Positions 1-52,493 of a DNA stretch of 64,000 bases are shown piece after piece (positions within the stretch are counted from its first letter, which is position 1; the number at the start of each line of letters is the position of its first letter). The notes beneath the pieces were generated by a model. The model did not search any database. It saw only the letters and a list, made by a program, of their open reading frames with translations, and had not been told where the DNA came from. Origin of the DNA: Octopus sinensis (lineage: Eukaryota); contig NC_043006.1 in the NCBI RefSeq assembly GCF_006345805.1, positions 63,178,001 through 63,242,000 of the forward strand. The letters run 5' to 3'. The translations under genes and the position numbers were made by a program.

Positions 1-138
1 ACCGATAGAATAAGTACTGGGCTTACAAAGAATAAGTACCGCGGTCGATTTGCTCGACTAAAGGCGGTGCTCCAGCATGGCCGCAGTCAAATGACTGAAA
101 CAAGTAAAAGAGTAAAAGAGTAAAAGAGTAAAAGAGTA
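1..138 (+). mobile_element. SINE family A, 3' half (window edge)
   Basis: Matches the 3' half of copies at 8193-8613 and 42343-42792; ends ggcggtgctccagcatggccgcagtcaaatgactgaaac plus (taaaagag)n tail. Confidence 0.9.
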
Positions 139-167
139 TATATTTATATTATATATATATATATTTT

Positions 168-208
<41 letters not shown>

Positions 209-216
209 TATATATA

Positions 217-263
<47 letters not shown>

Positions 264-351
264 TATATATGTATATATAAAAATATAAATATATATATAC
301 ATATATATGTATATATATACATATACACACACACGCATTTATATATATATA

Positions 352-408
<57 letters not shown>

Positions 409-789
409 GATACGCACTTTGTCGTATTGTTATCTGTTATATTTACATTGATGAAATGTGTGGTGTCGACGTTCTGTTAGGTAGGGTCAACAAGATTAGA
501 ACTTTATTAAGTGTAAGATTAGCGCTGGGCTTCTTTTGTTTACCGCTGTCCATTTTCCTTCAATGTTCGCTATATTATCTGTCTGTTGATTGTAGCCGCA
601 GACAAAACAACTCTCCGACTGTTGAAAGAAATGTGCCGGCGGTCAAGTGTTTAGTAGACAGAAACTCTTCAAAAATGTGTGAATCTTGATGAGCGCGTAC
701 GCTATGTTTGCGGTTGCGCACTTGTGTGTGTATATGTGTATACATGTGTGTGTATATATAAATACATATATATATATATATGTTTGTAT

Positions 790-864
<75 letters not shown>

Positions 865-1013
865 TGTTAGAGTATGTTTGTATGTCTACATATGTATATG
901 CACGCATGTATACACACACATACGCACACGCGCACGCGCACACACACGCACACATGCATATAGATATATGTGTATGTATATATATGTATATATGTATATG
1001 TATATATATATAT

Positions 1014-1046
<33 letters not shown>

Positions 1047-1063
1047 GTATATATGTATATGTA

Positions 1064-1108
<45 letters not shown>

Positions 1109-1111
1109 GTA

Positions 1112-1161
<50 letters not shown>
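139..1161. repeat. (TA)n/(TATG)n/(CA)n microsatellite tracts with an unclassified insert at ~406-720
   Basis: Seen directly; source of the YIYIY ORFs. Confidence 0.9.
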
Positions 1162-1168
<7 letters not shown>

Positions 1169-1178
1169 CTATTTGAAG

Positions 1179-1389
1179 ATGGTCATTTCATTTATTTATT
1201 TATTGCCAAATAAACAGACGTACTATTTTTGTTCTTCTCTCGTTTATTGCTGTTATTTAATTATTTTAACACCTGTTAAAATGAACAGTCGTTAAAATAA
1301 TAAAATACTAGTAATAATCGAGCAAAAGAAAAACAAGGAAATAGTGCGTGTGTTTATTTGGCAAAAATAATAATAAATAAAATGACCAT
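1179..1389. repeat. Imperfect fold-back (~90-bp arms) next to (TA)n
   Basis: atggtcattt...ttgccaaataaaca...attattttaac mirrored by gttaaaataat...tgtttatttggcaa...aaatgaccat. Confidence 0.8.
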
Positions 1390-1774
1390 ATATTTAGATC
1401 GAGATAGTGTATGAGTCTGTGTTTGTATATATGTATTTATTAACTATGTTTATAATTTTGCATGCATGTGTGTGTGCGTGTATATATATATAAGTAGTTA
1501 TGTATATAAATATACATGTATGTGTGTTCGTGTGTCTCTCTTCGTGTGTGTGTGTGTAATAGTCGAGACAGTGCATTGAACAAGAATGCGCAAGAAGACC
1601 TTGTGTTGGGTATGCCTAATCGATGAGTCTCTCTATACTCCAATGTGAACTTTGCCTTTCGTCTTAATGAAGTCAATAACATGAATGGCAGGCAATGGGA
1701 TATACTAAAACCTTTGTCGTAGGTGACCAATCACAGTGGCACCCAATATTAAAATAGTTAAATAAATACATAAA

Positions 1775-2400
1775 TAAATTATAATTCTTTCTAATTTTGG
1801 CAAGACCGGCACTTTTTAGGAAAGGGTTAATTCGATGATGTCGACCCCAGTTCTTGATTGGTACTAATCTTATCAACCCCAAAGGATTGAACTCAGAACG
1901 TATAAACTGGTAAACTGGCGCGTCCGCAACGCTAACGATTCTGCCAGCTCACCTCCTTTTCTTTATGCTATAGGCACGAGGCCTGAAATTTGATGGCAAA
2001 GGGACTAGTTGATTACATCAACCCCAGTGCTCAACTGGTACTTTTTTATCGACCCTGAAGTATGAAAGGCAAAATCGACCTCTGCAGAATTTCGACTCAG
2101 AACGTAAAGACGGACGAAATACCACTAAGCATTTTACCCGGCATGCTAACGATTCTGCCAGCTCGCTGCCTTATAACCATGATAATAATCCTTTCTACTT
2201 AAGTCACAAGTCCTGCAATTTTGTGGGTGGATTCTAGTTCATTACATCGACCCCTACGTTCAACTGTTACTTATTTTACCGAACACGAATGTTAAGCACG
2301 TGCAATTTGAACTCAGAACGTAAAGCCGCAAGAAATGCCGCTAAACATTTTGTCCGCCTTGCTAATAATCTTTTTTACTATAGTCACATAGCCAGATATT
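1775..2400 (-). mobile_element. Three tandem decayed copies of tRNA-derived SINE family B
   Basis: Repeated ...tcgaccccagt...gaactcagaacgta...ctaacgattctgccagctc motifs; same family as 54240-54472. Confidence 0.85.
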
Positions 2401-2489
2401 TTGGTGGTTAAGCATTTTCTCTGGTGTGCTATTGAGATTATATCTCTCTCTTCCTCTCTTTATTTGTATATATACACGTGCACATGTAT

Positions 2490-2552
<63 letters not shown>

Positions 2553-2555
2553 TTG

Positions 2556-2882
2556 GGACCCCCTTCGGTCATGACTGACCGTGGGTTTGCACCTAGAAAG
2601 TTACCCTCCCAGACACAAGTCTGGGCAAGATTGTTTATGGAAGACCAGCAGTCGCCCATGCATAACAGCGTGCCCTTTCCATGCCACCAGTGTTATCCAA
2701 GGGAAAGGCAAAGGGGCCGATACAGCTTGGCACCTGTGACGTCGCAACTCGTTTCTACAGCTGAGTTAACTAGAGCAACGTGAAATAAAGTGTCTTGCTC
2801 AAAAACACAACACACAGCCCAGTCCGGGATTCGAGCTCACGATCGTAAGCTCGACGCTCTAACCACTGAGCCATGCGCCTTC
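2556..2882 (-). mobile_element. tRNA-derived SINE family C
   Basis: Reverse complement of the 60349-60684 copy; A box tggctcagtgg and B-box-like gctcgaatcc. Confidence 0.9.
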
Positions 2883-2904
2883 ACTATATATATATATATA
2901 TATA

Positions 2905-3292
2905 TATATTTGTTTCTAATTTCAGCTCAGAGCTGCGGCCATGCTGATGCACCGCCGTTTTGTGCTACACTGTTATTGCGACGAACCTCGTCTAATATGT
3001 GGCACTTGGTGAAGAATGGAGTTTGATACAGCTACTCTCATTTGCACCTCTTGCCGTGAGGTAGGTTCATCTGGGACTCTTGACAGGAAGATGTCCAGCT
3101 TTGATTTAAAAACCGCTACATCTACTTTGTGCAAGTTCCTCAGACTCTTTGGGAGAATATTAAAAAGCTGTGGGCCCTTGAAACCCAGGCTGTTGCAGAA
3201 GCTGGTCCTGAAGCGTGATGGCATTGCTGGGATCTTCGGCACTATGCAGTGTCGTCCCGTTCTAGCATTGGTGTAGCTTACAATTCCAAAAT
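2905..3292 (-). mobile_element. CR1-group LINE, 5'-truncated 3' end (ORF2 C-terminus and 3' UTR)
   Basis: Minus ORF reads NSLGFKGPQLFNILPKSLRN...FKSKLDIFLSRVPDEP...SNSILHQ, typical of invertebrate CR1-type ORF2 termini. Confidence 0.8.
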
Positions 3293-3589
3293 TTAACTCA
3301 GCTGAAGAAACGAGTTGCGACGTCACAGGTGCCAAGCTGTATCGGCCCCTTTTGAATTTTTGAATTTTTGAATTTCTGATTTTTCGCTTCTTTTTATAAG
3401 TTTTGCTGGTCTCTACAGTTTTTGCAATTATGCAGTTTGTATATATTGGGAGATGCTTACCACCTTCATTTCTTTTGAAGCTACAGCCGATCATGGTGAA
3501 AGTTTCCCGCCTGGCACGTCCGAAACCGCCTGGATCAGAGGCAGTGATCTGGCCTTGGACGGTTGTTATGTCACAACAGTTCACATACA

Positions 3590-4260
3590 CGGTGTGCGCA
3601 AAAACAGACGTAAGTGGACGGTACAGAGGAGGCCGACGTACCTTGAAATTTTGGATGGAAAAGAATATAGGTCCAATGTCAGAAAATAAACTGATGAACC
3701 AAGTGAGAATGATTAGGAAGAATGGTCACTTAACTAGAGTAGAAATATATTGGATTAGTGAGAGTCTGAGAGGCCCTGCAGATGGGCCACAAAGGATGGT
3801 CCGAGTTGAAAACACAGAGGTAGTAGTTGAAAGTAGAGAGACGAGTAGACAGGAAGAACAGGGAAAGGGTGATGGGACTGCCAAGGATGAGGAACAGGAA
3901 AGTAATACAGTGAACCCTAATACTGTGGTGGGTGGACATGCAGGGGAAATGAACCAACTAGATAATGAATTGCTTGAAATTCAAAGATGACTCACCGACT
4001 TGATGAATGTTCCAGGAGAAAAAATTCCCATGAATATGAGAAGGGTAGCTAAGAGTATAACAAATAACGGAGGACATAACACAAACAAGGAATCTTCTCC
4101 GACTTATTGCGCTACCTGTTGAGGAGAAATTATAACTTAAGAGAACAAAAATGCTGGAGCCAAGGAACCATGGTGAAACCATAAAAAAAACATTAAAAAA
4201 GCCAATGAGTGAGTGTCGTGACACAAAAAATAGGTGACTAAGCAACTTCCAAAATCCTGT
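3590..4260 (+). mobile_element. R4/Dong-like non-LTR retrotransposon, decayed N-terminal ORF fragment
   Basis: SENKLMNQVRMIRKNGHLTRVEI resembles the EQRLxDQxRxIxKNxWL block; a KEPW motif follows; stops and frameshifts. Confidence 0.6.
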
Positions 4261-5177
4261 TCCAAACATGGGTATTTACTGGTTTAGGGTACATTTTGTA
4301 CATTTTACAGAATGATATTGTTTGTAAATGTTATTTTGTAAGATAGCTTTAATGTAAACGCTCGATGCGATAAAAACAATAGCCATGTAACTTTCTATTC
4401 ACAAGTAGTTGCCCTCGAAAAGAACACGTTAAATAATGACAATACATGAAGGAAAACATGGAGTGATCACGACTGGAATTTTTTTAATGACAAATCTGTT
4501 CCATTACAGTTGACATGGAACGACTCAAGAACAACAGAAGCAAATAAAATAGTAGCATACAAGTACACAGACAAAACACGCGGTATATAACAAATTGTGT
4601 GAGAAATCCTTCATAACATGAACAGTTTTCTACAAAGTACATATCTTTATATGATCCCTTTCACTGCATTCAGAAAGGTGATTGTATATCAGTTGTGGCA
4701 ATTGCAAATGGGACGTTTAAATACGTCTCATAACTATTTTAACAAGTGTGCTTGTATTAGGTCGATGTAATAAGTTCTATCGAAATGCTAGAAATAACAG
4801 TCTAATCTCCACTAAATCATACCCAATCCTCTCAGGAAAAGAATGGGTACACTGGACAGTGCAGACTACGTACCCGTAAAAGAGACAAGATGGTTATAGT
4901 CGCAATACCTTTGAACATAAACTGCTTCTTTCAAAATGAGATACAACTTTCATGTTCTTTTTAATACAACCGTTACCTCTTCGTAATTCTAAAGCTTTTC
5001 AGACTATTTCTTTACTACATTCTTACAGTCATTTAGTTGTGTGATTATGTTGAATAATATTTTTCATGAAGAGGATATCAGACTTATTATGTCATGTCTA
5101 CTGTTCTATAGAAATGCGAACTACCAGAGTATATTTATTGTTATAATTAATAAATATTCTACTGATTATTATTACAG

Positions 5178-5301
5178 AGGCACAAGTGGCATTGATATAG
5201 ATTTGGAAAAAGTAGACATCAACCAATGTCCTCAGACAGATGGTTCTAAAGAAACAAATGTTTTTGCCGGTTCTCATCGATGTCGAATGGAAACTACCAA
5301 G
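5178..5301 (+). CDS. GPR158-like: Internal coding exon of a GPR158/GPR179/CG31760-like class C orphan GPCR (extracellular Cache to Cys-rich junction)
   Basis: ttacag| acceptor at 5176-5177 and AAG|gtaaga donor at 5302. Encodes GTSGIDIDLEKVDINQCPQTDGSKETNVFAGSHRCRMETTK, matching the GTSGIDIDLxxVDIxQC...NxFAGxxxC...TT motif of this family. Phase 2 start, phase 0 end. Confidence 0.88.
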
Positions 5302-5385
5302 GTAAGAGAGTTTATGAATGATACTATCACATCCTACCCAAACACTTTCTATATACCCAATTCTCCTGCTTTCTCACTATCTCAC

Positions 5386-5436
<51 letters not shown>

Positions 5437-5453
5437 ACTTTTCTCAGAACCTT

Positions 5454-5495
<42 letters not shown>

Positions 5496-5668
5496 AATTG
5501 TCCAACGAACTATGAGTGACAGTTTTGTGATAATTTTTCAGCTTTAATATAAAGTACATTAGTTTGGTATTCGGGTAATATTTTTCCACCCTGTTATGCC
5601 TCAGTCTTAGGAATATAAAAAGACTTACTTATTCATATGTATATACACGTACGTATGTGTATATACAT

Positions 5669-5766
<98 letters not shown>

Positions 5767-6069
5767 TTATATGTATATATATGCATACGTGTGTATGTGT
5801 GTGTGCTGTCTTTTTTATTTCAGAATAATAAATTTTGACTGACCACGACTTGTTGGCAAGCTGTGAAGGAAAGCGTATTGTTTTGTTCATCATCCATTAA
5901 ATCTTAAGAAGGTCTCGCAGATTTTTAGAGCCCCTGATATTGTTATCATTTGTAGTGTATGAATTAAAGATTTGCGTTATCTACCCCCAAACCCAAGTTC
6001 AGCCATTCTTTGCTCCATATATGTGTGTATGTATATGTGTATATATATATATACACACACACAAATACA

Positions 6070-6115
<46 letters not shown>

Positions 6116-7578
6116 CGTCCTAGTCTCCATTTCCATTTCTTTTAAATGGATATTAACTATATATCTTTAAAATATACCTGTTATTTAAAGGAAATTCATT
6201 CCCCCGAAATACTGGGTATTGAACTAGCATTTCTACCCCTTCCTGAGGCTGATACATCCTCTAATTAAATATAAATTATAAATACATAACTTATAAAGTT
6301 TTATATTTTATATTATTCAATTTTTCTGCATTTATATACCCTCTTATACATTTGTATGGCTTTTATAGTTTGTAGATTGTTTGGCAACTTATACTTTCTT
6401 TTCATATAACTCACTGTTTAATGTAATGTTTTACTATTATATTTGTAATTACACATTATATTTTATAAATTGTTATATTTTATATTTGGTATTTTTATAC
6501 ATTTATATATCCTTTTATATACTTTCATAGTGTTTTTAATTTATAATTTTTTATGGGGTTGTTATATAATTCATTGTATATTTGTATATGTGAATTCTTA
6601 TTTTATTATATTTTTCAATCACGTAGTATATTCATTAAGTGTTTATATGCCTAAATTTGTTTAAATATGGTATCTGAATGTACTTCCTTACACATTTGAA
6701 ATATCTGTAATTTAATTACTCCATATATTGGATACCATTTCTTCAGAGATTTTATATTCATCCTCTCGTAATGAAGCAAATAGTTCTTATATTAGTTTAA
6801 CGTATACTCTAAATTTCTATTTATATGATAATTTAATTCCGTATTACATTCATTATAAATATTTTTACCATGATCTTTTATTCACTAAGTTTATGAAAAG
6901 TCTTAATATATTTTTCTCTTATATATTACACTATCCAATTATTAAGTTTTAGATTTAGCTTTTAACCTTCTTCTATATCTTGGTTTAAATATTTGGCTTT
7001 AATATTACAAATTGGCTAAGTTATAATACCTCCCATATTCTCTGATTTTAAATTCTACCCCTAAATTTATATTACGTCTTTCTTTTTTTTCATTGTCGTT
7101 GCCTGTAATATGATAATCAAAATAAGTATTAGCTCTTCTTATCCCTCTTTCTTCCAATTATCATATCTTCCCCATCAGGCATTCCCTTATTATTACGCCA
7201 CGCCCTAGTCTTTTGTGTAGACAAAGCTGGAAAAATGGTTCCAGTATATAGGGTTTAGTAGATCGTCTAACATTGATTGATTTAGAATACCGTTGACAAT
7301 TCCCAATAGATTTTATTCTAGACGGCTGCTACTCTCTAAATTATAGTAGACTTGACAAGATATGCAGTACTTTCTAAACTCATTCTGCCAGCGATATGAC
7401 AACAGAAACAATGTAAATATTTTGAGTTTCATTATGATGTGAATATGTTAGAGCAGTTTGTTTTTTCCATCTGGCGAGAACGGTTTCTTTCAAATGATGC
7501 AATGTTTTCATTAATCAATTAAAGGAGTCGCTTGAAACGACTATAACGAATTGACACACCTGTACACACCCACCCACC

Positions 7579-7664
<86 letters not shown>

Positions 7665-8192
7665 GTATGTAGTATGTATGTATGTATATATGTTTGTATG
7701 TGTGTATTTGTTTTGATGAAATATAATGGTCAATATCAGAGCCCGATTGATTTTTTTTTTTTGCTATTCTGATCGAATGTATATTTTATGTTTTTATTTA
7801 ACGGTGTCTTATTATCGGTGTATTACATTTTATTTGATTCATCTATTTCATTTAAGTTTCCTTTTCCTTTTATCTTTGCATACATTATTTTATTGTTCAT
7901 ATGACAAAGAATTCTTCATTATAGCTCTGTTCGTTATGGAGACGCATAGTACGCTAAACTTACTAAAATGTACTGTCTTAGAAATAAGCAAAACAGCAAG
8001 AGAAAAGTAGTAATTTTTGAAAAGTCACCCGAGGAGACGCACCTGCTTCTACAATGCATCATAACTGCTTGTACAGCATCTTTCATTCAAGGTACTGGTC
8101 GAAACGATTGTAGTGGTTCCGTTTTCTTTCCCCCATATGATATATATATATATATATATACATATATATGCATATATATACATATATATATA

Positions 8193-8355
8193 GGCGTAGG
8201 AGTGGCTGTGTGGTAAGTACCTTGCTTTCTAACCACATGGTTCCGGGTTCAGTCCCAATGCGTGGCACCATGGGCAAGTGTCTTCTTCTATAGCCTCGGG
8301 CCGACCAAAGCCTTGTGAGTGGATCTGGTAGAAGGAAACTGAAAGACGCCTGTCG

Positions 8356-8398
<43 letters not shown>

Positions 8399-8612
8399 TT
8401 GTGTGTCTGTGTTTGTACCCCCAACATCGCTTGACAACCGATGCTGGTGAGTTTACCTCCCCGTACCGTAGCGGTTCGGCAAAAGATACCGATAGAATAA
8501 GTACTAGGCTTACAAAGAATAAGTCCTGGGGTCGATTCGCTCGACTAAAGGCGTTGCTCCAGCATGGCCACAGTCAAATGACTGAAACAAGTTAGAGAGT
8601 AAAAGAGTAAAA

Positions 8613-8937: not shown

Positions 8938-9107
8938 TTATATATAGAGGGCATTATACATACATGCCAGATGGCATTATACATACATGCCACACGCTAA
9001 GAGGGACAATTAGTCATTTCTACCAAAATGGTAGAAATGACTAATTGTCCCTCTTAGCGTGTGGCATGTATGTATAATGCCATCTGGCATGTATGTATAA
9101 TGCCCTC

Positions 9108-9116
<9 letters not shown>
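8938..9116. repeat. Perfect hairpin, 88-bp arms, 3-nt loop
   Basis: 8938-9025 is the reverse complement of 9029-9116; part of an insert (8820-9116) between (TA)n tracts. Confidence 0.95.
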
Positions 9117-13830: not shown

Positions 13831-16800
13831 CAAGGCGGTATCAAAAGGTTTCCGGACTAGTTATGTTTAATAAAAATTACATATTTACTTAATCTTTAAC
13901 ATCATCTCCTTCGCAATGGTCACCCTGCGCACCAAAACATCGGTCCCAGTGTGCCTACCACTTTTGGAATCCAGCTTGGAAGTAGTTTTCCGTAAGCGCA
14001 TCGAGGACCTTCTGCGATTCGCTCTTGATCCCGACAACGGCGACATTTGAGCTGCATTTTCATCGGTTAATATAGGGCGTAACAAATATCAGAAAATCAA
14101 AAACAAAATGTGTGTAATAGGTGTAAAACAACTTCCTATGAACGAATATGAAAAGGGGGGTGGGGGAGAGGCCTCGGAAAATTCACATCGGGAAGTTCCG
14201 AAAGCGTCTGAGGGGCTGACCCGGGCACCAAAACAAAAAAAAATAGTGTAATATGTGTAAAACAACTTGCTCTAAACGAATATGAAAAAAAAATGCGCTC
14301 TCGAGAAAGAGGGGTGGGGGAGAGGCCTCGGAATATATCGGGAATTTCCGAAAGCGTCTGAACCGGGCACAAAAACAAAAACAAAAACAGCGTAATAGGT
14401 GTAAAACAACTTGCTCTAAACGACTATCATGAGAAAAATGCGCGCTCGCGAAAGGGGGGTGGGGGAGAGGCTTCGGAAATTTCACATCTTCAGTCCACGG
14501 CCTTTAAACTAAGAAAAAATAGTGTAATTGGTGTAAAACTACTTGTTCTAAACGAGTATCAAGAACACACACTCACACATGAATCATAAACTCCGTATTT
14601 CGCAAAAAAAAAAAATAAAGAGAAGAAATTCTGGAAAAAGTGAAGAAATGTTGGATCTCATTCCTTGGTTAAAGCTATTTTAAACATTAAATTTATGCTT
14701 TTCTTTGAAATAGTTCAGATATATGCAATTCTTCTCACTTATTAAGATGCATTTATCAGAAAAAATTATTATTTTGTGTCAATCCTTCCCTAATTATCCT
14801 TTATTAATTAGTTTTGGCGTGTATTTTTTTCCCAAATTTTTCCCACTGTTTAGTAAAGCAATTAATTATCTTTATAATTTGCATATTTGACTTATTAATC
14901 AAAATTCTCTAGATGTAATATATACTAAGTAATGCATCCTTCATTTATGTGTTCCGTTCTGTATTATGCATGCGTGACTGTTTGTATGTAAGTGTGTTTA
15001 ACTGTGCACATGAATGTGAATATTAAAGAACATATTTATTTACTATGATTGTTATTTTCAGAACAAATAAATCTTTTGGCTGTTATGTTATTGATGTTAT
15101 TATTATTGCTAGTTAAAGGGTGGTGACTTGGCTGAATATTTTGAGTCTTGTAGTATGTAGTTGTGTTAGTCAATATTCTGAGTTCAAATCCAACTCATTT
15201 TTTATCATCATTATCGATGGACCACTCAAAGAGGTATGTATACATTATCATTTTCGTAACATAATTTCTGTAGTATTTCAAGATGTTTCTGACACGTATT
15301 TTGATTCACATGGCGGAGATCCAACATTTCTTCACTTTTTCCAGAATTTCTTCTCTTTATTTTTTTTTTTGCGAAATACGGAGTTTATGATTCATGTGTG
15401 AGTGTGTGTTCTTGATACTCGTTTAGAACAAGTAGTTTTACACCAATTACACTATTTTTTCTTAGTTTAAAGGCCGTGGACTGAAGATGTGAAATTTCCG
15501 AAGCCTCTCCCCCACCCCCCTTTCGCGAGCGCGCATTTTTTTCATGATAGTCGTTTAGAGCAAGTTGTTTTACACCTATTACGCTGTTTTTGTTTTTGTT
15601 TTTGTGCCCGGTTCAGACGCTTTCGGAAATTCCCGATATAAATATTCCGAGGCCTCTCCCCCACCCCTCTTTCTCGAGAGCGAATTTCTTTTTCATATTC
15701 GTTTAGAGCAAGTTGTTTTAACAATATTACACTATTTTTTTTTTTTTGGTGCCCGGGTCAGCCCCTCAGACGCTTTCGGAACTTCCCGATGTGAATTTTC
15801 CGAGGCCTCTCCCCCACCCCCCTTTCGCGTGCGCGAATTTTTTTTTTCATATTCGTTCATAGGAAGTTGTTTTACACCTATTACACACATTTTTTTTTGG
15901 ATTTTCTGATATTTGTTACGCCCTATATTAACCTTTTCATCTTGGGGAAGAGATGTAAGTCCGTAGGTTTTAAATATGGCGAATAGGGTGGGTGCGGAAG
16001 CGATTCTATATTGTTTTTGGCGAGTAACTCGCGATTGAGGAGAGCTCGGTGACAGAGTACATTGTCGCCGTGAAGAACCCAATTCTTCGTGCTCCACACA
16101 TCCGATCGCCTTCGCCGAATGTCCTCCCTGAAACACTTCAAAACTCTCGATCGACGGTCTGGCCTTAGGGTGCAAATTCTTGATGCACAATACCGCGAAC
16201 ATCGAAAAGAAAGGTGATCATGTTCTTGATCGAGCTGCGGTTCTGTCGTGCCTTATTCGGTCGTGGAGATGAAGGGCTCTTCCATTGTGAGGACTGCTGC
16301 TTCGACTCACGATCGTACCCATAGACCCAACTCTTGTCACCGGTGATGATCCTCGACATGAAGGATGGGTCACCAGCGACACACAAACGGAGATCTTGAC
16401 AAACTTCGACGCGATGTTCTTTCTGCTCAGACGGGGTCAAACTTGGCAAAGATACGCTGCATGTTCAATTTAGATGTTAGGATTGCCTGCACGTTCTCAT
16501 GCGACACACCATCATCTGCAATGTCGCTGATTGTCCTCCAATCATTCTCATGACTAAGCTGATGAATTTTCTCCCCATTTCCGGGTTTGATGGCTCATCG
16601 TCTTCCAGGGACGTTCTTCTACTTTTGAAGCACCCGTGTCACTCGAACCAGTGCCTACGACCCATAGCCTCATCGTCGCAAGCTTGCCAAAGCATACTCA
16701 ATATCTCTGTAGCAGACCTCTCGAGTTTGACGCTAAATTTCACGTTGGATTTTTGTCCCAAATTCCTATCCATGACAAAATCGCAGACTACAGCATACAG

Positions 16801-20028: not shown

Positions 20029-20488
20029 GAGACAGATAGAGAGAAGGAGAGAGAGAGAAGGAGAGAATTTATATGAGATGTATATTTCCGAGATACATGT
20101 TCAGAAATGATAGAACATATATGTCTATTAAGTGCCATAAAGCCATTTGTAGTTAAATATATTGTTAGACATTAGAGGAAATAAATACAGAAGCATCATA
20201 AATGGGAAACATTTTTCACATTATTTTTCACATAATCCTGGACTTTATATGTGAAATACCAGTGACATGCTGTATGTCCAACAACAATATTAGCAGACAG
20301 ACAGCCGTGCAGTGGTACGACATATAGTCCAAATCGACGAAAGCCTGATTTTTAAGAGGAAAAATTAAGCTGGAAGAGTTTTGAATATTTGTGATTGTCG
20401 TAACCGACAGTGTGCTAGTTTTTATGTGTGTACGTGCGTTTATAAAGATATAATTGAAACAATACGTATATATACACACATACATATA

Positions 20489-21770
20489 TCAGGTCATCCC
20501 ATAAGTTCTGTCCGATTTTACATTTTTTTAAAATAAAATGAAATTTAATAGTATTTTAGAATGTTTAATGGAATTAAAATTATTTATATGCATTTGTGTA
20601 CATTTAAACTAATTAAATATTATTTTATAGAATAATAGAATTGAAATTTATTTGATTAATACCCTCTCTAGCATGGAAGTATCCAAAGAGCATTTAAGGC
20701 ACATAATGCTTTATGAGTACAAAAAAGGAAACTCAGCAGCCGAAGCGACTCGAAACATGCACTCAGTTTATAGGAAAGAATACTTGAATAAAAGAACTTG
20801 CAGAAGATGGTTTTCACAATTCAGATGTGGAGATTTCAGCCTTGAAGATGAAGATCGAACAGAACGTCCAGTTGAGTTTGATGATAATCTCCTTGAGACA
20901 TTATTTGGAGAAAATCCTGCATTATCAGTTGAAGAATTGGCAATAAAGCTTAGTTCAAACCACACAACAGTTCATTATCATATAACTTAGAAAGGTTCCG
21001 AAACTTAGAAAATGGGTGGCTCATGAATTGTCCGAAAGCAATCACATATCCCGAGTTGACATCTGCTCTTCTCTCCATTCACGCCTACTCATTTCACCCG
21101 TTTTGGATAGACTTGTGACTGGTGACGAAAAATAGATCTTTTATCGAAATGGTAAATGTTGTGAACAGTGGCTTGGTAAAAGGAAGAAAACTCAACCACA
21201 ACCGAGAAGGGAACTTCACAGGAAAAAGTTCTTCTCTCTATCTGGTGGGGTTGCAAAGGAGTAATTCAATTTGAATTGTTACCAGCTAATGCAATAATCA
21301 ATGCTCAAGTCTACTGTCAGCAATTAGAGCGTTTGAACCAAGCTTTGAAGAAAAAGAAGACCCGCGTTAGTGAATCGAAAAGGCGTGATGTTTCATCAGG
21401 ACAATGCGCGACCCCACGCTACAAAGATCATATCACAGAAGATCAAAGACCTTGGTTGGTTGGGAAAAAATTCTCATCCACCTTATTCTCCCGACCTTGC
21501 TCCTTCAGACTACCATTTGTTTCTTAGTTTACAGAATCATTTGGGGGACATAACTTTCGCAAGCCAGGAGGAGGTCGAAACTGACATTCCAGAGTTCTTC
21601 GCTTTGAAACCAAAAGAGTTTTACATTCATGGGATTAAAAAGTTTGTAAATAAATGGAAGAAAGTCATAGATAATCAAGGAAAGTACATTGACGAATAAA
21701 TTTCAATTAAGTATAACATTTGATCACTTGTCTTTATTCAAAATTCGGACTGGACTTACAGGATGACCTG

Positions 21771-22412: not shown

Positions 22413-22929
22413 TTTTTTTATTGACTGATTTTTATTCCATTATCCTAATAGCTTCTGAAACTTATGCATATACATGTGTAAATGCATACATAAACATACA
22501 AATATATACACACACTCATACATTTTTATATACATTTAAATATCGATATTATCCTCATTTATAAATTTATATATATATATATATATATATATACAACAAA
22601 TACTAATGGTGTGGATTTTCTAAAAGCTCTTTCAGGGACAAAGTTATCACAATGAATTCCAATTTAATCGGAATTTACTTGATCTGAAACATATTTGTAG
22701 AAAAGAAATATCTAATTTTCTCAAGGTTATGAAGAAACAAATCTTTGGGGCACAATTGTGTAGATATGCCGAAATATTTATATATATACAAGGTTGTATA
22801 TAAAGCTAACTCTGTAAAAATGTATGAGTGTGTGTATGTATTTGTATGTTTATGTATGCATTTACACATGTATATGCATAAGTTTCAGAAGCTATTAGGA
22901 TAACGGAATAAAAATCAGTCATAAAAAAA
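22413..22929. repeat. Inverted repeat, ~115-bp arms, ~285-bp spacer (MITE-like)
   Basis: 22413-22528 mirrored by 22815-22929. Confidence 0.85.
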
Positions 22930-42868: not shown

Positions 42869-43557
42869 GATATATGCATGTAAGTATTTATGCATTTTTA
42901 CACATGCACAAGTCACATCGTGTCCCACATGTGTTATTTTTTTCATCTTTTATAATGGGTTGTTCATTGTATTCACAATATATGTATGTACGTATGTATG
43001 TATATATGCATACATATGTGGATATATATGTGTATATACTAAGACTATATATATGCAAGTATGTATGTATGTACAGTGAGGTTCCTTATCAGCACATCAG
43101 TACCATACCACCGTAAACCTTAGAGTAGCAGACGCCTCTAAACTTCGATCCTTGCTCATCACTTTATTTCCACATAAGTCAAATTGCAGTTAACATTCCA
43201 AACTTTAGACAAGCACTTTAGAATGAAAATTATGCTACCATCCCACCCAGCCAATGATAAGGTTTCACTTTCGTCTTCTATAACGTTGTCCTGTTGTGTT
43301 TGAGCAAAAACTTTTTAATTAAAGCCGTTCTTCTTTGCGTTGTCCTGACTTTTCTGCATAAACTATACTAAAAGAGTTTCAGAATTTTATTTATCAACTG
43401 TTATATATATTTGGGGAATTGCAGTGATTTACGGAGAAATTTTATGGGAAATTAAAAAGTATTTGAAAACTGTCTTTATTTTCTTTTTATTTCTATCTTG
43501 AAATAAAATTTTGATAAAGTGTGGCCCTTGATAATATATTTCTTTAAGGGAAAAACG

Positions 43558-44202
43558 TTGTTGAATTTTCATGTCAGTGATGGTAGTTGATGGATGTCCT
43601 GCTCCCTCTTTGTGCTTTAGGCTTGTGTTCCAGACATGCTATATCTGAAAAAAATAGACGGGATGGTCGAAGGTCATGCCTGGAACGTCCTTGCGTAAAG
43701 CCTGCTCGATCAAATGTAACTGAAGGTAAGCAACAACAATAAGAATAATTTCTACTGATATATATATAACACGAATGTCACAAAATGTTCTTTTATAATA
43801 CTATTCTATAAATTAATTTCTACATACGAATTCTCTCTTCCGAAGAAGGCAATTATAAAAAATAATACAAACTCAAAACAATACAAAACATATAATGTTC
43901 TTATATAATATCTTCTTTTATAAGAACTTGATATAAAATTTGCTTAGCGAGTGAGGTGGGGTTGGTGAACACGAGTTTCTCAATTTCATTAACTTTCAGT
44001 AGAAACTACTATAGTCGTTGGCGTGTGAAGTAATTCCAATTTTGAATAGAAACTCACTCGCAGTTTTGTGTCATCGTCAACATTTCACACTCTATAGTGT
44101 CTAAAGCTGAAATAGAAAATATATATTTTATGATTTAAGCAGAAATACTTCTAGGAAAGGCTCTGCTTCATTCTCTCTACCATTTTCTCTCTCCCACCCC
44201 TT

Positions 44203-44273
<71 letters not shown>

Positions 44274-46269
44274 TAGAAGGTTTGGAGATGATGTACAGGT
44301 ATTATATATTAGAAGAAATGAGGTACTCAGAAATCTGGATGGTTTTATATTTACAGATATTTATTAGTATGTTACATGTTTTTATAAATCATATATCATA
44401 TATATAGCGCTTTCGTCAACTCTAGTGGATTTTTCAAACTGAACTTTTGCATTAATTTTGACTCTTTTTATAGTATTATTGAGTGTGTAGTGGTGGGAAG
44501 AGATAAAAGATAATACAAGAGGGTGAGGAATGGGGAGAAAGTGAGAGACCGTGTGTGCGTGTGTATGTGTGTGTGTGCATGTGTGTGTGTTTTTGTATCT
44601 GAAACTAGTGTTAAAGAAAAAGAAGGAAAGGAAGAAGAAGGAGAGAAAGAAGAAAAAATTGTTGATATCTTTGCAGCTGGTCAGTCTGTCAATAATAAGC
44701 GATTCTTGGCTTTTAGCAATGGCAAACCCAGTTGGTCACTCCAAGTGGGACAAAATCTCACTTTTCAAAAAATTGTCTGGATTTTTTCTTCTTTCTCTCC
44801 TTCTCCTTCCTTTCTTTCTTTTTCGTTAACACCCCTTTCAGTCTAAGCTTAGATCATTTGACTCCTTTGTAAGAAATCTAGCCAATGTGTACGACAACAA
44901 AGACAAAAATCGGAGAACATGATACACAATTACGAATACAGACAACAAGAAATAACAACAGGTGTCTTTCGATTGGGAACGAATCAAATTGAGAACGATT
45001 TTAAAGCTTCATTTAGAACTCGTTACTATAATACGATTTAGTAAGTCTGGTTAGTTATGCTTAAAATAATGTAGTGGTTCGCCAATCAGCAAATTTGTAA
45101 ATTTGCACGTGAAATTCTATATGTTTAATAATGTTTTTACGCAAACCTTCTCCGCCTTTTTTCGTCACTGGTTGATTCAGTTTCACTTTATTAAAGACTG
45201 TCATATCGAATTTCTATCATTCTGCGAACAACTTTCGAAAAAGCGCCTTTCATTACTATGAAGGGAAAAACGTTTTTCGTTTCATAGTAATGAAAGGCGC
45301 TTTTTCGAAAGTTGTTCGCAGAATGATAGAAATTCGATATGGCAGTCTTTAATAAAGTGAAACCGAATCAACCAGTGACGAAAAAAGGCGGAGAAGGTTT
45401 GCGTAAAAACATTATTAAACATATAGAATTTCACGTGCAAATTTACAAATTTGCTGATTGGCGAACCACTACATTATTTTAAGCATAACTAACCAGACTT
45501 ACTAAATCGTATTATAGCAACGAGTTCTAAATGAAGCTTTAAAATCGTTCTCAATTTGATTCGTTCCCAATCGAAAGACACCTGTTGTTATTTCTTGTTG
45601 TCTGTATTCGTAATTGTGTATCATGTTCTCCGATTTTTGTCTTTGTTGTCGTACACATTGGCTAGATTTCTTACAAAGGAGTCAAATGATCTAAGCTTAG
45701 ACTGAAAGGGGTGTTAACGAAAAAGAAAGAAAGGAAGGAGAAGGAGAGAAAGAAGAAAAAATCCAGACAATTTTTTGAAAAGTGAGATTTTGTCCCACTT
45801 GGAGTGACCAACTGGGTTTGCCATTGCTAAAAGCCAAGAATCGCTTATTATTGACAGACTGACCAGCTGCAAAGATATCAACAATTTTTTCTTCTTTCTC
45901 TCCTTCTTCTTCCTTTCCTTCTTTTTCTTTAACACTAGTTTCAGATACAAAAACACACACACATGCACACACACACATACACACGCACACACGGTCTCTC
46001 ACTTTCTCCCCATTCCTCACCCTCTTGTATTATCTTTTATCTCTTCCCACCACTACACACTCAATAATACTATAAAAAGAGTCAAAATTAATGCAAAAGT
46101 TCAGTTTGAAAAATCCACTAGAGTTGACGAAAGCGCTATATATATGATATATGATTTATAAAAACATGTAACATACTAATAAATATCTGTAAATATAAAA
46201 CCATCCAGATTTCTGAGTACCTCATTTCTTCTAATATATAATACCTGTACATCATCTCCAAACCTTCTA

Positions 46270-46342
<73 letters not shown>

Positions 46343-46987
46343 AAGGGGTGGGAGAGAGAAAATGGTAGAGAGAATGAAGCAGAGCCTTTCCTAGAAGTAT
46401 TTCTGCTTAAATCATAAAATATATATTTTCTATTTCAGCTTTAGACACTATAGAGTGTGAAATGTTGACGATGACACAAAACTGCGAGTGAGTTTCTATT
46501 CAAAATTGGAATTACTTCACACGCCAACGACTATAGTAGTTTCTACTGAAAGTTAATGAAATTGAGAAACTCGTGTTCACCAACCCCACCTCACTCTCTA
46601 AGCAAATTTTATATCAAGTTCTTATAAAAGAAGATATTATATAAGAACATTATATGTTTTGTATTGTTTTGAGTTTGTATTATTTTTTATAATTGCCTTC
46701 TTCGGAAGAGAGAATTCGTATGTAGAAATTAATTTATAGAATAGTATTATAAAAGAACATTTTGTGACATTCGTGTTATATATATATCAGTAGAAATTAT
46801 TCTTATTGTTGTTGCTTACCTTCAGTTACATTTGATCGAGCAGGCTTTACGCAAGGACGTTCCAGGCATGACCTTCGACCATCCCGTCTATTTTTTTCAG
46901 ATATAGCATGTCTGGAACACAAGCCTAAAGCACAAAGAGGGAGCAGGACATCCATCAACTACCATCACTGACATGAAAATTCAACAA
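43558..46987. repeat. 3.43-kb near-perfect palindrome (inverted duplication, ~1.7-kb arms, no loop)
   Basis: Identical ORFs at 44523-44846(+) and 45697-46020(-); centre between 45271 and 45272; few substitutions plus a 2-bp (CA)n length difference. Confidence 0.97.
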
Positions 46988-47690
46988 GTTCGAGTGATGT
47001 TTCTGGCGAATCGGCGAGTGGCCAACGATGAAGTGGCATGTTCTCTGAAAACTAGTCGATTAGAAATCATCCACGGCAAGCTTTGCTTCCGTAAAGTCTT
47101 TGCGAGATCGATAGTGGTGCCAAGACACCGCTTACCCGACCACTACAACGATGAAGGCGAAGCGTTTTAGAAGAGAGTAGTCACAGGAAATTAAATCTGG
47201 GTCCATCACTTCGAACCAGAATTCAAAAAACAGAGTATGGAGTGGAAACACCCGGAAACTCAAGCGAGAATTTAAATTCAATCACCAGAGTAGGCTACAG
47301 TGAAATGCTGAGCAACAAACTGAAACCATCAGTTTGCACCAAACGCCGAGGTCTATTGTTAAAACAACTTTTGTTGCAGGACAATGCATTCTCACATGCA
47401 GTCGCCCACACCGTTGAAACTACTGAAAAAACTGGGTTTCGAGTTGCTGAATTGCCCTGCATAAAGTCCGTCCAGATCTCGCTCCTTCCGCTTTCACCCT
47501 CTTTGGACAGCGCCCAAACATCCTTTACACGGTGGTCGATTTGCTACGGACGAAGAAGCACAGGACGCGTTGAATAAATGGATGCGCAACCTGCCGAAAA
47601 ACCTTCTTCAATGGAATAAGCAAGCTTGTGGACCACTAAAAGAAATGTATCGAAAAGTAAGGAGAGTGAATCGAAAAACTGTGTAATTGT
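46925..47690 (+). mobile_element. Decayed mariner transposase
   Basis: GAGHPST...IQQVRVMFLANRRV...KLCFRKVFAR...VVTGN*IWVHHFEPEFKKQSMEWKHP...LLQDNA. Confidence 0.8.
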
Positions 47691-48080
47691 TGAACTACTG
47701 CTTTTTTGTTTTACTTTTTTTTATTAAATTGCATAAGGAAGAGTGCGTTTAATTTTTTACCTACTCATGTTTATGTAATATCCTAAAGTTACGGTGTATG
47801 TCTTATAGTGACTTTTTTCTATTCTGCCTAGTGTATTCCCATCAGAGGACTCGGTTTTCGAAGAGGTTCCTACCGATGTGTTTGCAAAGATTCTTTCTAC
47901 TTTCCCAATGTTACAGCGGAACATAGATATTTCTTCGGTACAGATGTAGAACACGAATACGAAAAGGCAAAGAGAGTAAGTATATCACTTACAATTTCTT
48001 ATATATTATTATAATCCTACTATTATATACCATATACATTATATATAATATAGAAGTGTATGTGTGTATGTGTGTGTGTA

Positions 48081-50759: not shown

Positions 50760-51746
50760 AAAATAAGGTGGATGAGGATTTTTTTTCCCAACCAAGCTCT
50801 TCGATCTTCTGTGATGTGATCTTTGCAGTGTGGGGGTCGCGCATTGTCCAGATGAAACATCACACCTTTTCGATACACTAAAGCGGGTCTTTTTTTCTTC
50901 AAAGCTTGGTTCAGAAACTCTAGTTGCTGACAGTAGACTTGAGCATTGATTGTTGCATAAGGTGGTAACAATTCAAAGTGAATTACTCCTTTGGAATCCC
51001 ACCAGATAGCGAGAAGAACCATTTTCCCATGAAGTTCCCTTCTCGGTTGTGGTTTTTCCCTTTTACGACGTTTAACGACATTTAACATTTCGATAGAAGA
51101 TCCGTTTTTCGTCACCAGTCACAAGTCTAACGAAAAGGGTGAAATGAGTTCGCGTCAATGGAAAGAAGAGCAGATGTCAACTTGGGACTTGCGGTTGCTT
51201 TCGGACAATTCATGAGGCACCCATTTTCCAAGTTTAGGAACCTTTCCTAGCTGTTGAAGATGACGATGAACAGTTGTATGGTTTGAACTAAGCTTTATTG
51301 CCAATTCTTCAACTGATAATGCAGGATTTTCTTCAAGTAATGTCTCAAGGAGCTTATCATCAAACTCAACTGGACTTCCTGTTCGATCTACATCTTCAAG
51401 GCTGAAATCTCCACTTCTGAATTTTGCAAACCATCTTCTGCAAGTTCTTTCATTCAAGCATTCTTTCCCATAAACTGAGAGAGAGTCGCTTCGGCTGCAG
51501 AGTTTGTTTTTTTTTTGTACTCATAAATCATTTTGCCTCAAATGCTCTTTGGATACTTCCATGTTAGAAATGGTTTTAATCAAAGAAATTTTAATTCTAT
51601 TATTCTATAAAATAATATTTAATTAGTTTAAATGTACGCAAAAGCATGAAAATCACTTTTAATTCCATTAGACATTTTAAAATATTATTAAATTTCATTC
51701 AGTTTTAAAGCAGGTAAAATCGGACAGAACTTATGGGATGACCTGA
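50760..51746 (-). mobile_element. Mariner, same family as 20489-21771, 3'-truncated
   Basis: TIR tcggacagaacttatgggatgacctga|TA; KLGKWVPHELSESNR, WWDSKGVIHFELL, FHLDNARP. Confidence 0.92.
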
Positions 51747-52493
51747 TAACATGGCTCTAATGGTTTCTTATAAATAGAGGAAATGTGCTCGTATTTATTG
51801 ATATTACCATGTATGTATATGGGCATATACATTTGTACATTCATGGATTGCTATGCTTATAAATTACTTAGACATAAATTAATACACCCTATAGATCGAA
51901 ACACATATCGAAAAAATGCATTATCTTTATACATTCATCTGGATGCATAAATAACATCATAGAATTACGTGAATGCATTTCTCTACAATAATGAAATTAC
52001 GAATAACCACGCTTGAAACAGACTAGAAAACCCTTAGTAAATATTTAAAGTAACATAGTCTCACCAATCCTTACCATCCCAATAAACTTTGCTACAATCA
52101 TTTATTAATATAAATCTCGCAGGACCAAAACTAATCCAACCTCATTTTGATATATGCTTGGAACCGAGCAATCTCGTCAACTAATATTCCTATGTGAACC
52201 TTAAAACACAACAAAAACATCAACAATCTGATCAAAGAATATCATGGCCTGAACTTAACAACGCTTGACTGAACTCTAAACAATAGCAATTTTCCTACGT
52301 CAAACCAAATAGAAACTCCTCTCCCACGCCCTACAAACACATATTTACCTCCTGTCCTCCTCTATCCTCTGCTTCCTAAACAACTACTCCCCCAATCTAC
52401 CTACTAGACACCTAATTATCATATCACATGGCACTATATCCCAAAATATTCTTGCTAAAGACGACATAAAACCAAATAGAATGAAAATAAGTG

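Follow-up and report, generated by a model that had tools for sequence, protein, structure and literature searches.

The window, that is, the whole stretch of 64,000 nucleotides that was analysed (G000:C10:63178001-63242000), belongs to a contig of chromosome scale in an animal genome of 2.72 Gb. Two exon matches to a GPR158/179-like host gene were found in it, at 5152-5313 and 47823-47900, and a long palindrome (43546-46987) is located between them, so that the palindrome is likely intronic. Judged from these matches the intron would be about 42.5 kb long, and the exon at 47823 lies about 850 bp downstream of the palindrome. The features used in the description of the locus are as follows, each with the evidence for it in brackets.

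5152-5313, forward strand: upstream exon match of the GPR158/179-like host gene, positions 30-77 of PF22572 (E 8.5e-8)
43544-43549, forward strand: TT/AAGG at the start of B, similar to the bottom-strand consensus for nicking by the L1 endonuclease (motif count; noticed post hoc)
43546-43559, forward strand: B, first copy, a direct repeat of 12-14 bp at the outer left junction (14-mer search)
43558-45262, reverse strand: left arm D', an inverted and derived copy of 45281-46987 (self-alignment, the cut mariner-like remnant and the contig start in samples X11 and X12)
43558-43626, reverse strand: truncated inverted piece of the mariner-like remnant within the left arm (alignment of 11 of the 13 copies, all from 43558)
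44208-44261, forward strand: (CA)27 in the left arm, with its partner (TG)28 at 46281-46336 (arm comparison)
45261-45274, forward strand: B, second copy, at the apex, holding the mismatching bases 45263-45264 (14-mer search)
45265-45278, no strand assigned: perfect 14-bp palindrome, the likely fold-back hairpin with a 5-bp stem and a 4-nt loop (sequence, folding and a background frequency of 2.2e-4)
45273-45280, forward strand: C, an 8-bp single-copy segment between B and D (read from the sequence)
45281-46987, forward strand: right arm D, original intron segment of 1.7 kb (arm comparison; joins the right flank in samples X4 and X13)
46919-47777, forward strand: decayed mariner-like transposase remnant crossing the end of the right arm (other copies align at 68-83%)
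47823-47900, forward strand: downstream exon match of the same host gene, positions 71-96 of PF22572 (profile match)

The sole self-inverted alignment, 43554-46990, has 99.5% identity over 3,440 columns. Its exact arms extend over 43558-45262 on the left (1,705 bp) and 45281-46987 on the right (1,707 bp), and this difference in length corresponds to one (CA) unit in the microsatellite listed above. Four substitutions separate the arms (43948/46597, 45025/45518, 45179/45364 and 45201/45342), and two mismatching pairs at the apex, 45263-45264 / 45279-45280, flank the central palindrome. All of these differences had been named in an initial annotation of this DNA; each was recovered in the arm comparison, which found no others. 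The same annotation had proposed that three of the substitutions cluster near the apex. As a count this held, three of the four lying within 247 bp of the apex, but its significance is borderline: P is about 0.01 with this cut, which was chosen post hoc, 0.04 when mean distance is used and 0.10 for any three within 176 bp. A reading of the arm differences as an A-to-I signature was rejected, as they are not confined to one strand.

The 14-mer said to be present both at the outer left junction and at the apex was found there base for base, at 43546 and 45261 and nowhere else in the window, with no occurrence on the minus strand. The bases AA and TT at the ends of B are the two 2-bp microhomologies of the structure. 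A perfect 14-bp palindrome occupies the centre (45265-45278), and centres of this kind were counted at 116 of 533,398 sampled non-microsatellite sites (2.2e-4). The layout of the whole locus can be written as A-B-D'-B-C-D-E, in which B has 12-14 bp, C has 8 bp and D has 1.7 kb. Both junctions are inverted and are fully accounted for by local DNA: at 43557/43558 the end of B meets the end of D, and at 45262/45263 the start of D meets the start of B. The copy pattern in the assembly is 2-1-2, with B present twice, C once and D twice, where the doubling of B is read from the assembly alone.

The right arm contains unique DNA, two old repeat fragments, microsatellites and the start of the mariner-like remnant. 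When the genome assembly was searched with the arm stretch 44600-45260, two full matches were obtained, both at this locus, and 45273-45549 had no other match among 40 scored candidates. A search of the same assembly for another haplotig that carries the ancestral allele found none (the left flank matched once and the arm twice), and no repeat copy spanning the ancestral B-C join was found in it. A MITE or foldback transposon was rejected as an identity for the palindrome: the arm is single-locus and not dispersed, and the direct repeat is located at the junction and the apex, not at both outer ends.

The remnant at 46919-47777 is named mariner partly from motifs that we take to be typical of these elements. 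A search against solved structures returned only the Mos1 transposase as a weak match (E 0.23), and a Pfam search of the remnant gave no match. All 13 of its copies align across 46987 on the right, whereas on the left 11 copies align, each of them from 43558 onwards. Because the copies cross the end of the right arm but start only at the left junction, the right arm is the original and the left arm the copy. This assignment had also been made in the initial annotation, and besides the mariner-like copies it is supported by samples X4 and X13, in which a single arm runs into the right flank.

The locus can be explained by a single event, to which we assign a probability of roughly three in four: a bottom-strand 3' end would have folded back on the 14-bp palindrome, copied 1.7 kb and been rejoined by a 2-bp microhomology. 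The free bottom-strand end, just past B, could have come from a stalled nascent strand or from a resected break with a 12-14-nt stagger. After fold-back on 45265-45278, the last two bases of this end would pair at 45281-45282 across two mismatches, and because priming would take place across these mismatches the apex would keep 45263-45264. Synthesis would proceed along D as far as 46987, and the displaced strand would anneal at 45273-45274 through a 2-bp microhomology, or through four of five positions when one mismatch is counted. This annealing site would lie 12 bases behind the start point, so that B would be copied twice. A reconstruction of fold-back and return in this order reproduces the observed sequence exactly, including the apex mismatches and the second B. 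The earlier proposal of fold-back self-priming and template return is thereby borne out as far as the product is concerned, while the direction of synthesis and the trigger lie beyond the sequence evidence.

Since the 14-bp palindrome is located in the single-copy B-C part, it would be older than the event. For the 22-nt apex, folding gave a minimum free energy of about -3.3 kcal/mol with the pairing in another register, and its stability was not significant (z -0.8 and -1.0); a 2-nt clamp after two mismatches would be a weak fold, not the favoured or lowest-energy one. No function is proposed for the palindrome, which is likely to be neutral DNA of the intron whose frequency rose by drift in one lineage. 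The intron RNA, if transcribed, is predicted to form a 1.7-kb hairpin.

The structure is a known template-switch product, described as DUP-NML-INV/DUP or as '4 before 1', and it belongs to a described class rather than a new one. As in the DUP-NML-INV/DUP rearrangements outlined in one report (PMC6902434), there is a distal-to-distal and a proximal-to-proximal junction, and an inverted distal segment lies between two direct proximal copies with a piece of normal copy between. The PLP1 cases of that report extend over megabases, whereas here the proximal duplication is 12-14 bp and the normal piece 8 bp; since B and C are so small, the product is a nearly loopless palindrome. The present locus also differs from them in having no Alu/LINE pair at its junctions and in belonging to a wild animal lineage, not to disease. 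The same structure has been presented as a two-duplication (Dup-invDup) local 2-jump (PMC7025897). In the four-point template-switching model (PMC7954356), the '4 before 1' switch has the order 4-1-3-2 on the top strand, as seen here, and leaves a direct and an inverted repeat resembling one insertion; the fragment copied here is 1.7 kb, whereas about 140 nt on each side were searched in that work.

Local fold-back inversions at double-strand breaks in yeast (PMC11724301) have hairpin priming, synthesis, strand displacement and end joining in common with the event proposed here. The insertions described there are joined at a median 2-bp microhomology and are mostly 5-34 bp, up to >150 bp, in length; the palindrome differs from them by its 1.7-kb copy, its 12-14-bp direct repeat and the lack of a known break. 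That 1.7 kb is far longer than these yeast events (PMC11724301) was counted against fold-back. Literature searches on this animal group, which were not aimed at this locus, returned no title that deals with palindromes of this kind.

Nine 200-kb blocks and the window, a sample of 1.864 Mb, were scanned for palindromes; 54 were obtained in which each arm has 35 or more non-simple bases, the arms are at least 85% identical and the spacer is at most 30 bp. Outside the window, 11 have arms of at least 100 bp at 95% identity, and one has arms of more than 500 bp at 98% (902 bp, L160:536-2341). Scaling of the latter class gives about 1,500 palindromes genome-wide, with a very wide interval of 38-8,400. 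The junction-to-apex match of 14 bp in the focal palindrome is the longest among the 54, and shuffled pairings reach 14 in 0.3% of cases. The initial annotation had suggested a search for other palindromes with a repeat shared by junction and apex; in this 1.864-Mb sample such a repeat was not a common signature, none of the other 53 palindromes having a clean one longer than 7 bp. One TA-rich case had 10 bp and three had 7 bp, a length reached by 3.4% of shuffled pairings.

Runs of (TA)5 or more adjoin 21 of the 54 palindromes, against 5.6% of random intervals (P 5e-13), and other microsatellites are not enriched at them ((CA)/(TG) 3/54, (GA)/(TC) 0/54). With two cases excluded that have TA at both ends, 19 TA-adjoining palindromes were judged by their other copies: the arm away from the TA run was original in 12 and the TA-side arm in none. 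An origin of these palindromes as fold-back copies that stopped in (TA)n, in which the arm next to the TA run would be the original, was rejected on this count. A second TA run lay within 100 bp of the far end in 8 of the 19 (11% expected, P 6e-4). By its sequence the palindrome with 902-bp arms matches Penelope-like elements: it encodes a GIY-YIG fragment (E 0.005, below the cut-off), and a relative in L047 has reverse transcriptase and GIY-YIG frames.

For Penelope-like elements an arrangement has been reported in which there is an inverted truncated copy, a short tail on one side and a (TA)n target (PMC8557442, PMC3846280), and the observations on these palindromes agree with it; such elements have also been reported as recently active in Octopus vulgaris (PMC13282606). 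An assignment of all TA-adjoining palindromes to this type was not borne out, as only 2 of the 21 could be tied to a coding match: these have, no more than 3 kb away, a match to the three Penelope-like proteins used, as have 3 of the 33 other palindromes. For the remaining TA-adjoining palindromes a Penelope-like type is nevertheless the likely reading. The focal palindrome resembles the inverted 5'-truncated Penelope-like copies in its near-loopless form, which those reports attribute to self-priming (PMC8557442, PMC3846280), but differs from them as single-locus intron DNA without terminal (TA)n or a Penelope-like coding match. Its own reading as a Penelope-like inverted insertion was rejected on the single-locus arm, the lack of (TA)5+ at its ends and a tblastn search of the whole window with Penelope-like proteins, which gave no match. 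The nearest (TA)4 lies about 140 bp from its left junction.

As a subset of the fold-back explanation, the free end may have been produced by a LINE- or Penelope-type endonuclease. In this case B would be a target-site duplication left by a staggered cut, and the primer end would have folded back in an 'empty' retrotransposition, a tentative and on balance doubtful trigger. The 12-14 bp of B fall within the 7-20-bp range of L1 target duplications given, together with the L1 nick consensus, in PMC3219598, and B starts at TT/AAGG with ten pyrimidines preceding the bottom-strand 3' end; no more than 1.9% of AA sites have a TT/AARR reading. This motif was spotted post hoc, however, and hairpin geometry alone also predicts a B near this length. 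Ends cut by L1 ORF2p have been reported to yield inverted duplications in which a 2-bp homology primes a small hairpin and a short duplication lies between the breakpoints (10.1101/2024.12.14.628481), features that are seen here too. The L1 cases reported there have an L1 insert, whereas the focal palindrome has no retro-copied insert, neither junction showing retro-copied sequence or poly(A), and a role of an endonuclease in it is putative. This genome also contains Penelope-like elements whose inverted copies are at 99%, and self-priming of such elements has been reported (PMC3846280). A search for A-tailed, duplication-flanked L1-type inserts in 1.86 Mb passed 0 of 41 candidates, so that no L1-type targeting is shown in this genome sample.

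A more specific course, that an endonuclease cut inserted nothing and was healed by a 1.7-kb snap-back, and that the resulting 3.4-kb palindrome was carried to high frequency without central deletion, is unlikely. If it were true, hairpin loci of kilobase scale would, together with Penelope-like insertions, number in the hundreds to thousands in this genome, which would make it a natural testing ground for the tolerance of long palindromes.

The same product could also have arisen in the mirror order, by fork stalling and template switching without self-priming. Here the top strand would have come to a halt once B was copied and switched to the sister strand 1.7 kb further on; synthesis would then have run back as far as the hairpin, with a return to the first base of B. 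The resulting sequence would be identical, and the two types of event are described as inseparable without replication direction (PMC7954356); a short microhomeology is also present at the far junction. This order would, however, need a 1.7-kb jump on 2-5 matching bases and its end on a 14-bp palindrome would have to be a coincidence (2.2e-4 per site) if it is not the hairpin that halts synthesis, and we regard it as quite improbable. Self-primed fold-back from the bottom strand, followed by return, is the preferred reading.

Contigs of other samples bear on whether the assembled structure is real. Public runs matching 43065-44200 numbered 24, from which the contig comparison took X4, X11, X12 and X13 and left out X2 and the small-share runs X7-X10. 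X11 and X12 are two samples from one study other than the likely source of the assembly, and X4 and X13 are relatives. In both X11 and X12, base 1 of the arm contig falls exactly at 43558, a point at which the junction and the normal right-flank join have their first word in common, and a second contig overlaps the arm contig by just 30 bases there. The loose-end consensus of X11 matches the inverted right flank in 28 of 30 letters (by eye). The depth of the arm contig was 14.1 in X11 and 74.8 in X12, against 5.45 and 33.7 for the contigs joining at 43558. Relative to the median of the other contigs listed, arm depth was 2.14 in X11, 1.76 in X12, 0.79 in X4 and 0.53 in X13; these ratios express contig depth, not strict copy number, the comparison contigs not being calibrated for it. 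Single-copy depth over the arms had been named beforehand as a sign of an artefact, and contig depth in X11 and X12 is about two-fold instead. A ratio near 2 would fit two carrier chromosomes better than one, for which 1.5 is expected.

In the relatives, the arm contig continues unbroken beyond 43558, for 183 bases in X4 and for 325 in X13. The unrearranged ancestral state is present in both, with a single arm continuous with the right flank (the letters of the join itself are not displayed). In X13 the match of the left-flank contig ends at 43555, with 22 letters unaligned. The listed contigs of X11, X12 and X4 cover the arm, not the apex and, owing to a record filter, not the left flank; with the left flank uncovered, no contig listed bridges 43557/43558. 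A true absence of the left flank from these three samples was rejected, and the missing cover was taken as a filter hole. From the contig break at 43558 and the roughly doubled arm depth, with no bridging contig, the inverted duplication is very probably real and inherited.

Long palindromes are a familiar type of artefact, and a fold-back chimeric molecule from the assembly or the library could have been built into the sequence. The arm divergence (4 of 1,705) is on the order of allelic differences, X2, whose sample label is that of the likely source, has 0.88 of the sampled words, and no bridging contig is among those listed. Yet two runs of another study break exactly at 43558 at about twofold depth and two relatives show neither, a recurrence that a single chimeric molecule could not give; X11, moreover, contains 1.00 of the 105 sampled words, where the chance of missing all 28 junction-specific words is about 0.06. 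An artefact of this kind is thus very unlikely. Hardly credible is a simple inversion of C-D in the heterozygous state, of which the assembler placed both alleles one after the other: it would also make the left junction, the break at 43558 and arm differences at the allelic level, but it predicts single-copy arm depth, against the observed 1.8-2.1 times the median of other contigs, and leaves the second B with its two mismatching apex bases unexplained.

The palindrome is an unusually clean natural record of a probable fold-back and return, in which the two junctions, the likely priming hairpin and the state before the event are readable, and its size lies between template switches of tens of bases and the kilobase-to-megabase rearrangements of disease. 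The most recombinogenic palindromes are described as having long arms, high identity and little spacer, and 718 near-perfect palindromes of more than 200 bp are given for the human genome (PMC7999016). The apparent persistence of the present one, found at about twofold depth in two further samples despite an architecture expected to be unstable, is a mild surprise. With carriers and non-carriers among close relatives, stability and central flipping can be tested, as can any effect that the 1.7-kb hairpin predicted for the intron RNA may have on how the downstream exon is edited or spliced.

X12 and X4 bear the same organism label and differ in palindrome state, which is either a polymorphism or the result of a label that lumps sister lineages. 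On this scale the duplication is recent. Over 643 bases X4 departs from the left arm once, at 43814; both arms have the same base there and X13 agrees with X4, so that this change is older than the duplication or was converted. The base of X4 at 43948 is that of the left arm, and the right-arm base is therefore derived or an error.

Short-spacer palindromes were collected from nine 200-kb blocks of the genome assembly (L035-L214) together with the window, which gave a sample of 1.864 Mb. A run of (TA)5 or longer adjoined 21 of the 54 palindromes in this sample, compared with an expected 5.6%. Among 19 TA-abutting palindromes that were tested, the original arm was the one away from the TA run in 12, and a second TA run lay within 100 bp in eight. 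Three features from two of the sampled blocks, L160 and L047, concern Penelope-like sequences:

L160:536-2341 (contig C11, 20050536-20052341), palindrome with 902-bp arms, 99.3% identical, and a 1-bp spacer
L047:694-2286, Penelope-like element on the minus strand, containing frames for a reverse transcriptase (343 aa) and for GIY-YIG (179 aa)
L047:2645-2939, palindrome with 145-bp arms, in the immediate neighbourhood of this element

The arms of the L160 palindrome consist of a Penelope-like fragment encoding GIY-YIG, and the palindrome is flanked by (TA)n on one side and by a 39-bp tail followed by (TA)n on the other. The TA-abutting palindromes are likely to be Penelope-type inverted insertions, a relation shown for only 2 of the 21; for the others, fold-back repair at broken (TA)n tracts is a possible but less probable origin.

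The window itself contains further inverted repeats:

8938-9116, perfect palindrome (arms 88 bp, loop 3 nt) with a TA run of 56 bp after it
14065-14659 and 15316-15933, two inverted copies, each roughly 600 bp long, 94.5% identical with indels, 656-bp spacer
20487-21487 and 50762-51748, 1-kb repeats in inverted orientation to each other, separated by 30 kb and 87% identical
2710-3352, inverted repeat of 60 bp with a 523-bp spacer
22413-22929, inverted repeat of 115 bp with a 286-bp spacer (identity 97-98% for this and the preceding repeat jointly)

The arm of the first palindrome is part of a dispersed repeat, other copies of which extend beyond the apex, and the pair at 14065-15933 is made up of internally repeated units. 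The two 1-kb repeats flank the focal palindrome (43546-46987), one on each side.

Within the left arm of the focal palindrome lies a dispersed repeat of about 240 bp (44600-44841), mirrored in the right arm, whose first 60 bases are the inverted repeat of its last 60. Elsewhere it is often tandem, with many copies near 34.5-35.0 Mb of contig C6.

Over the left junction (43065-44200), public sequencing run X2 contained 0.88 of the sampled sequence words, even though its sample label is that of the likely source. Runs X12 and X4 carry one organism label, yet they differ in arm copy state over this interval.

For the host gene, a GPR158/179-like receptor, further exon matches to the GPR158/179 domain were found on contigs C1 (130.6, 135.2 and 139.4 Mb), C2 (88.5 Mb) and C19 (20.0 Mb), and the gene therefore has several paralogues.
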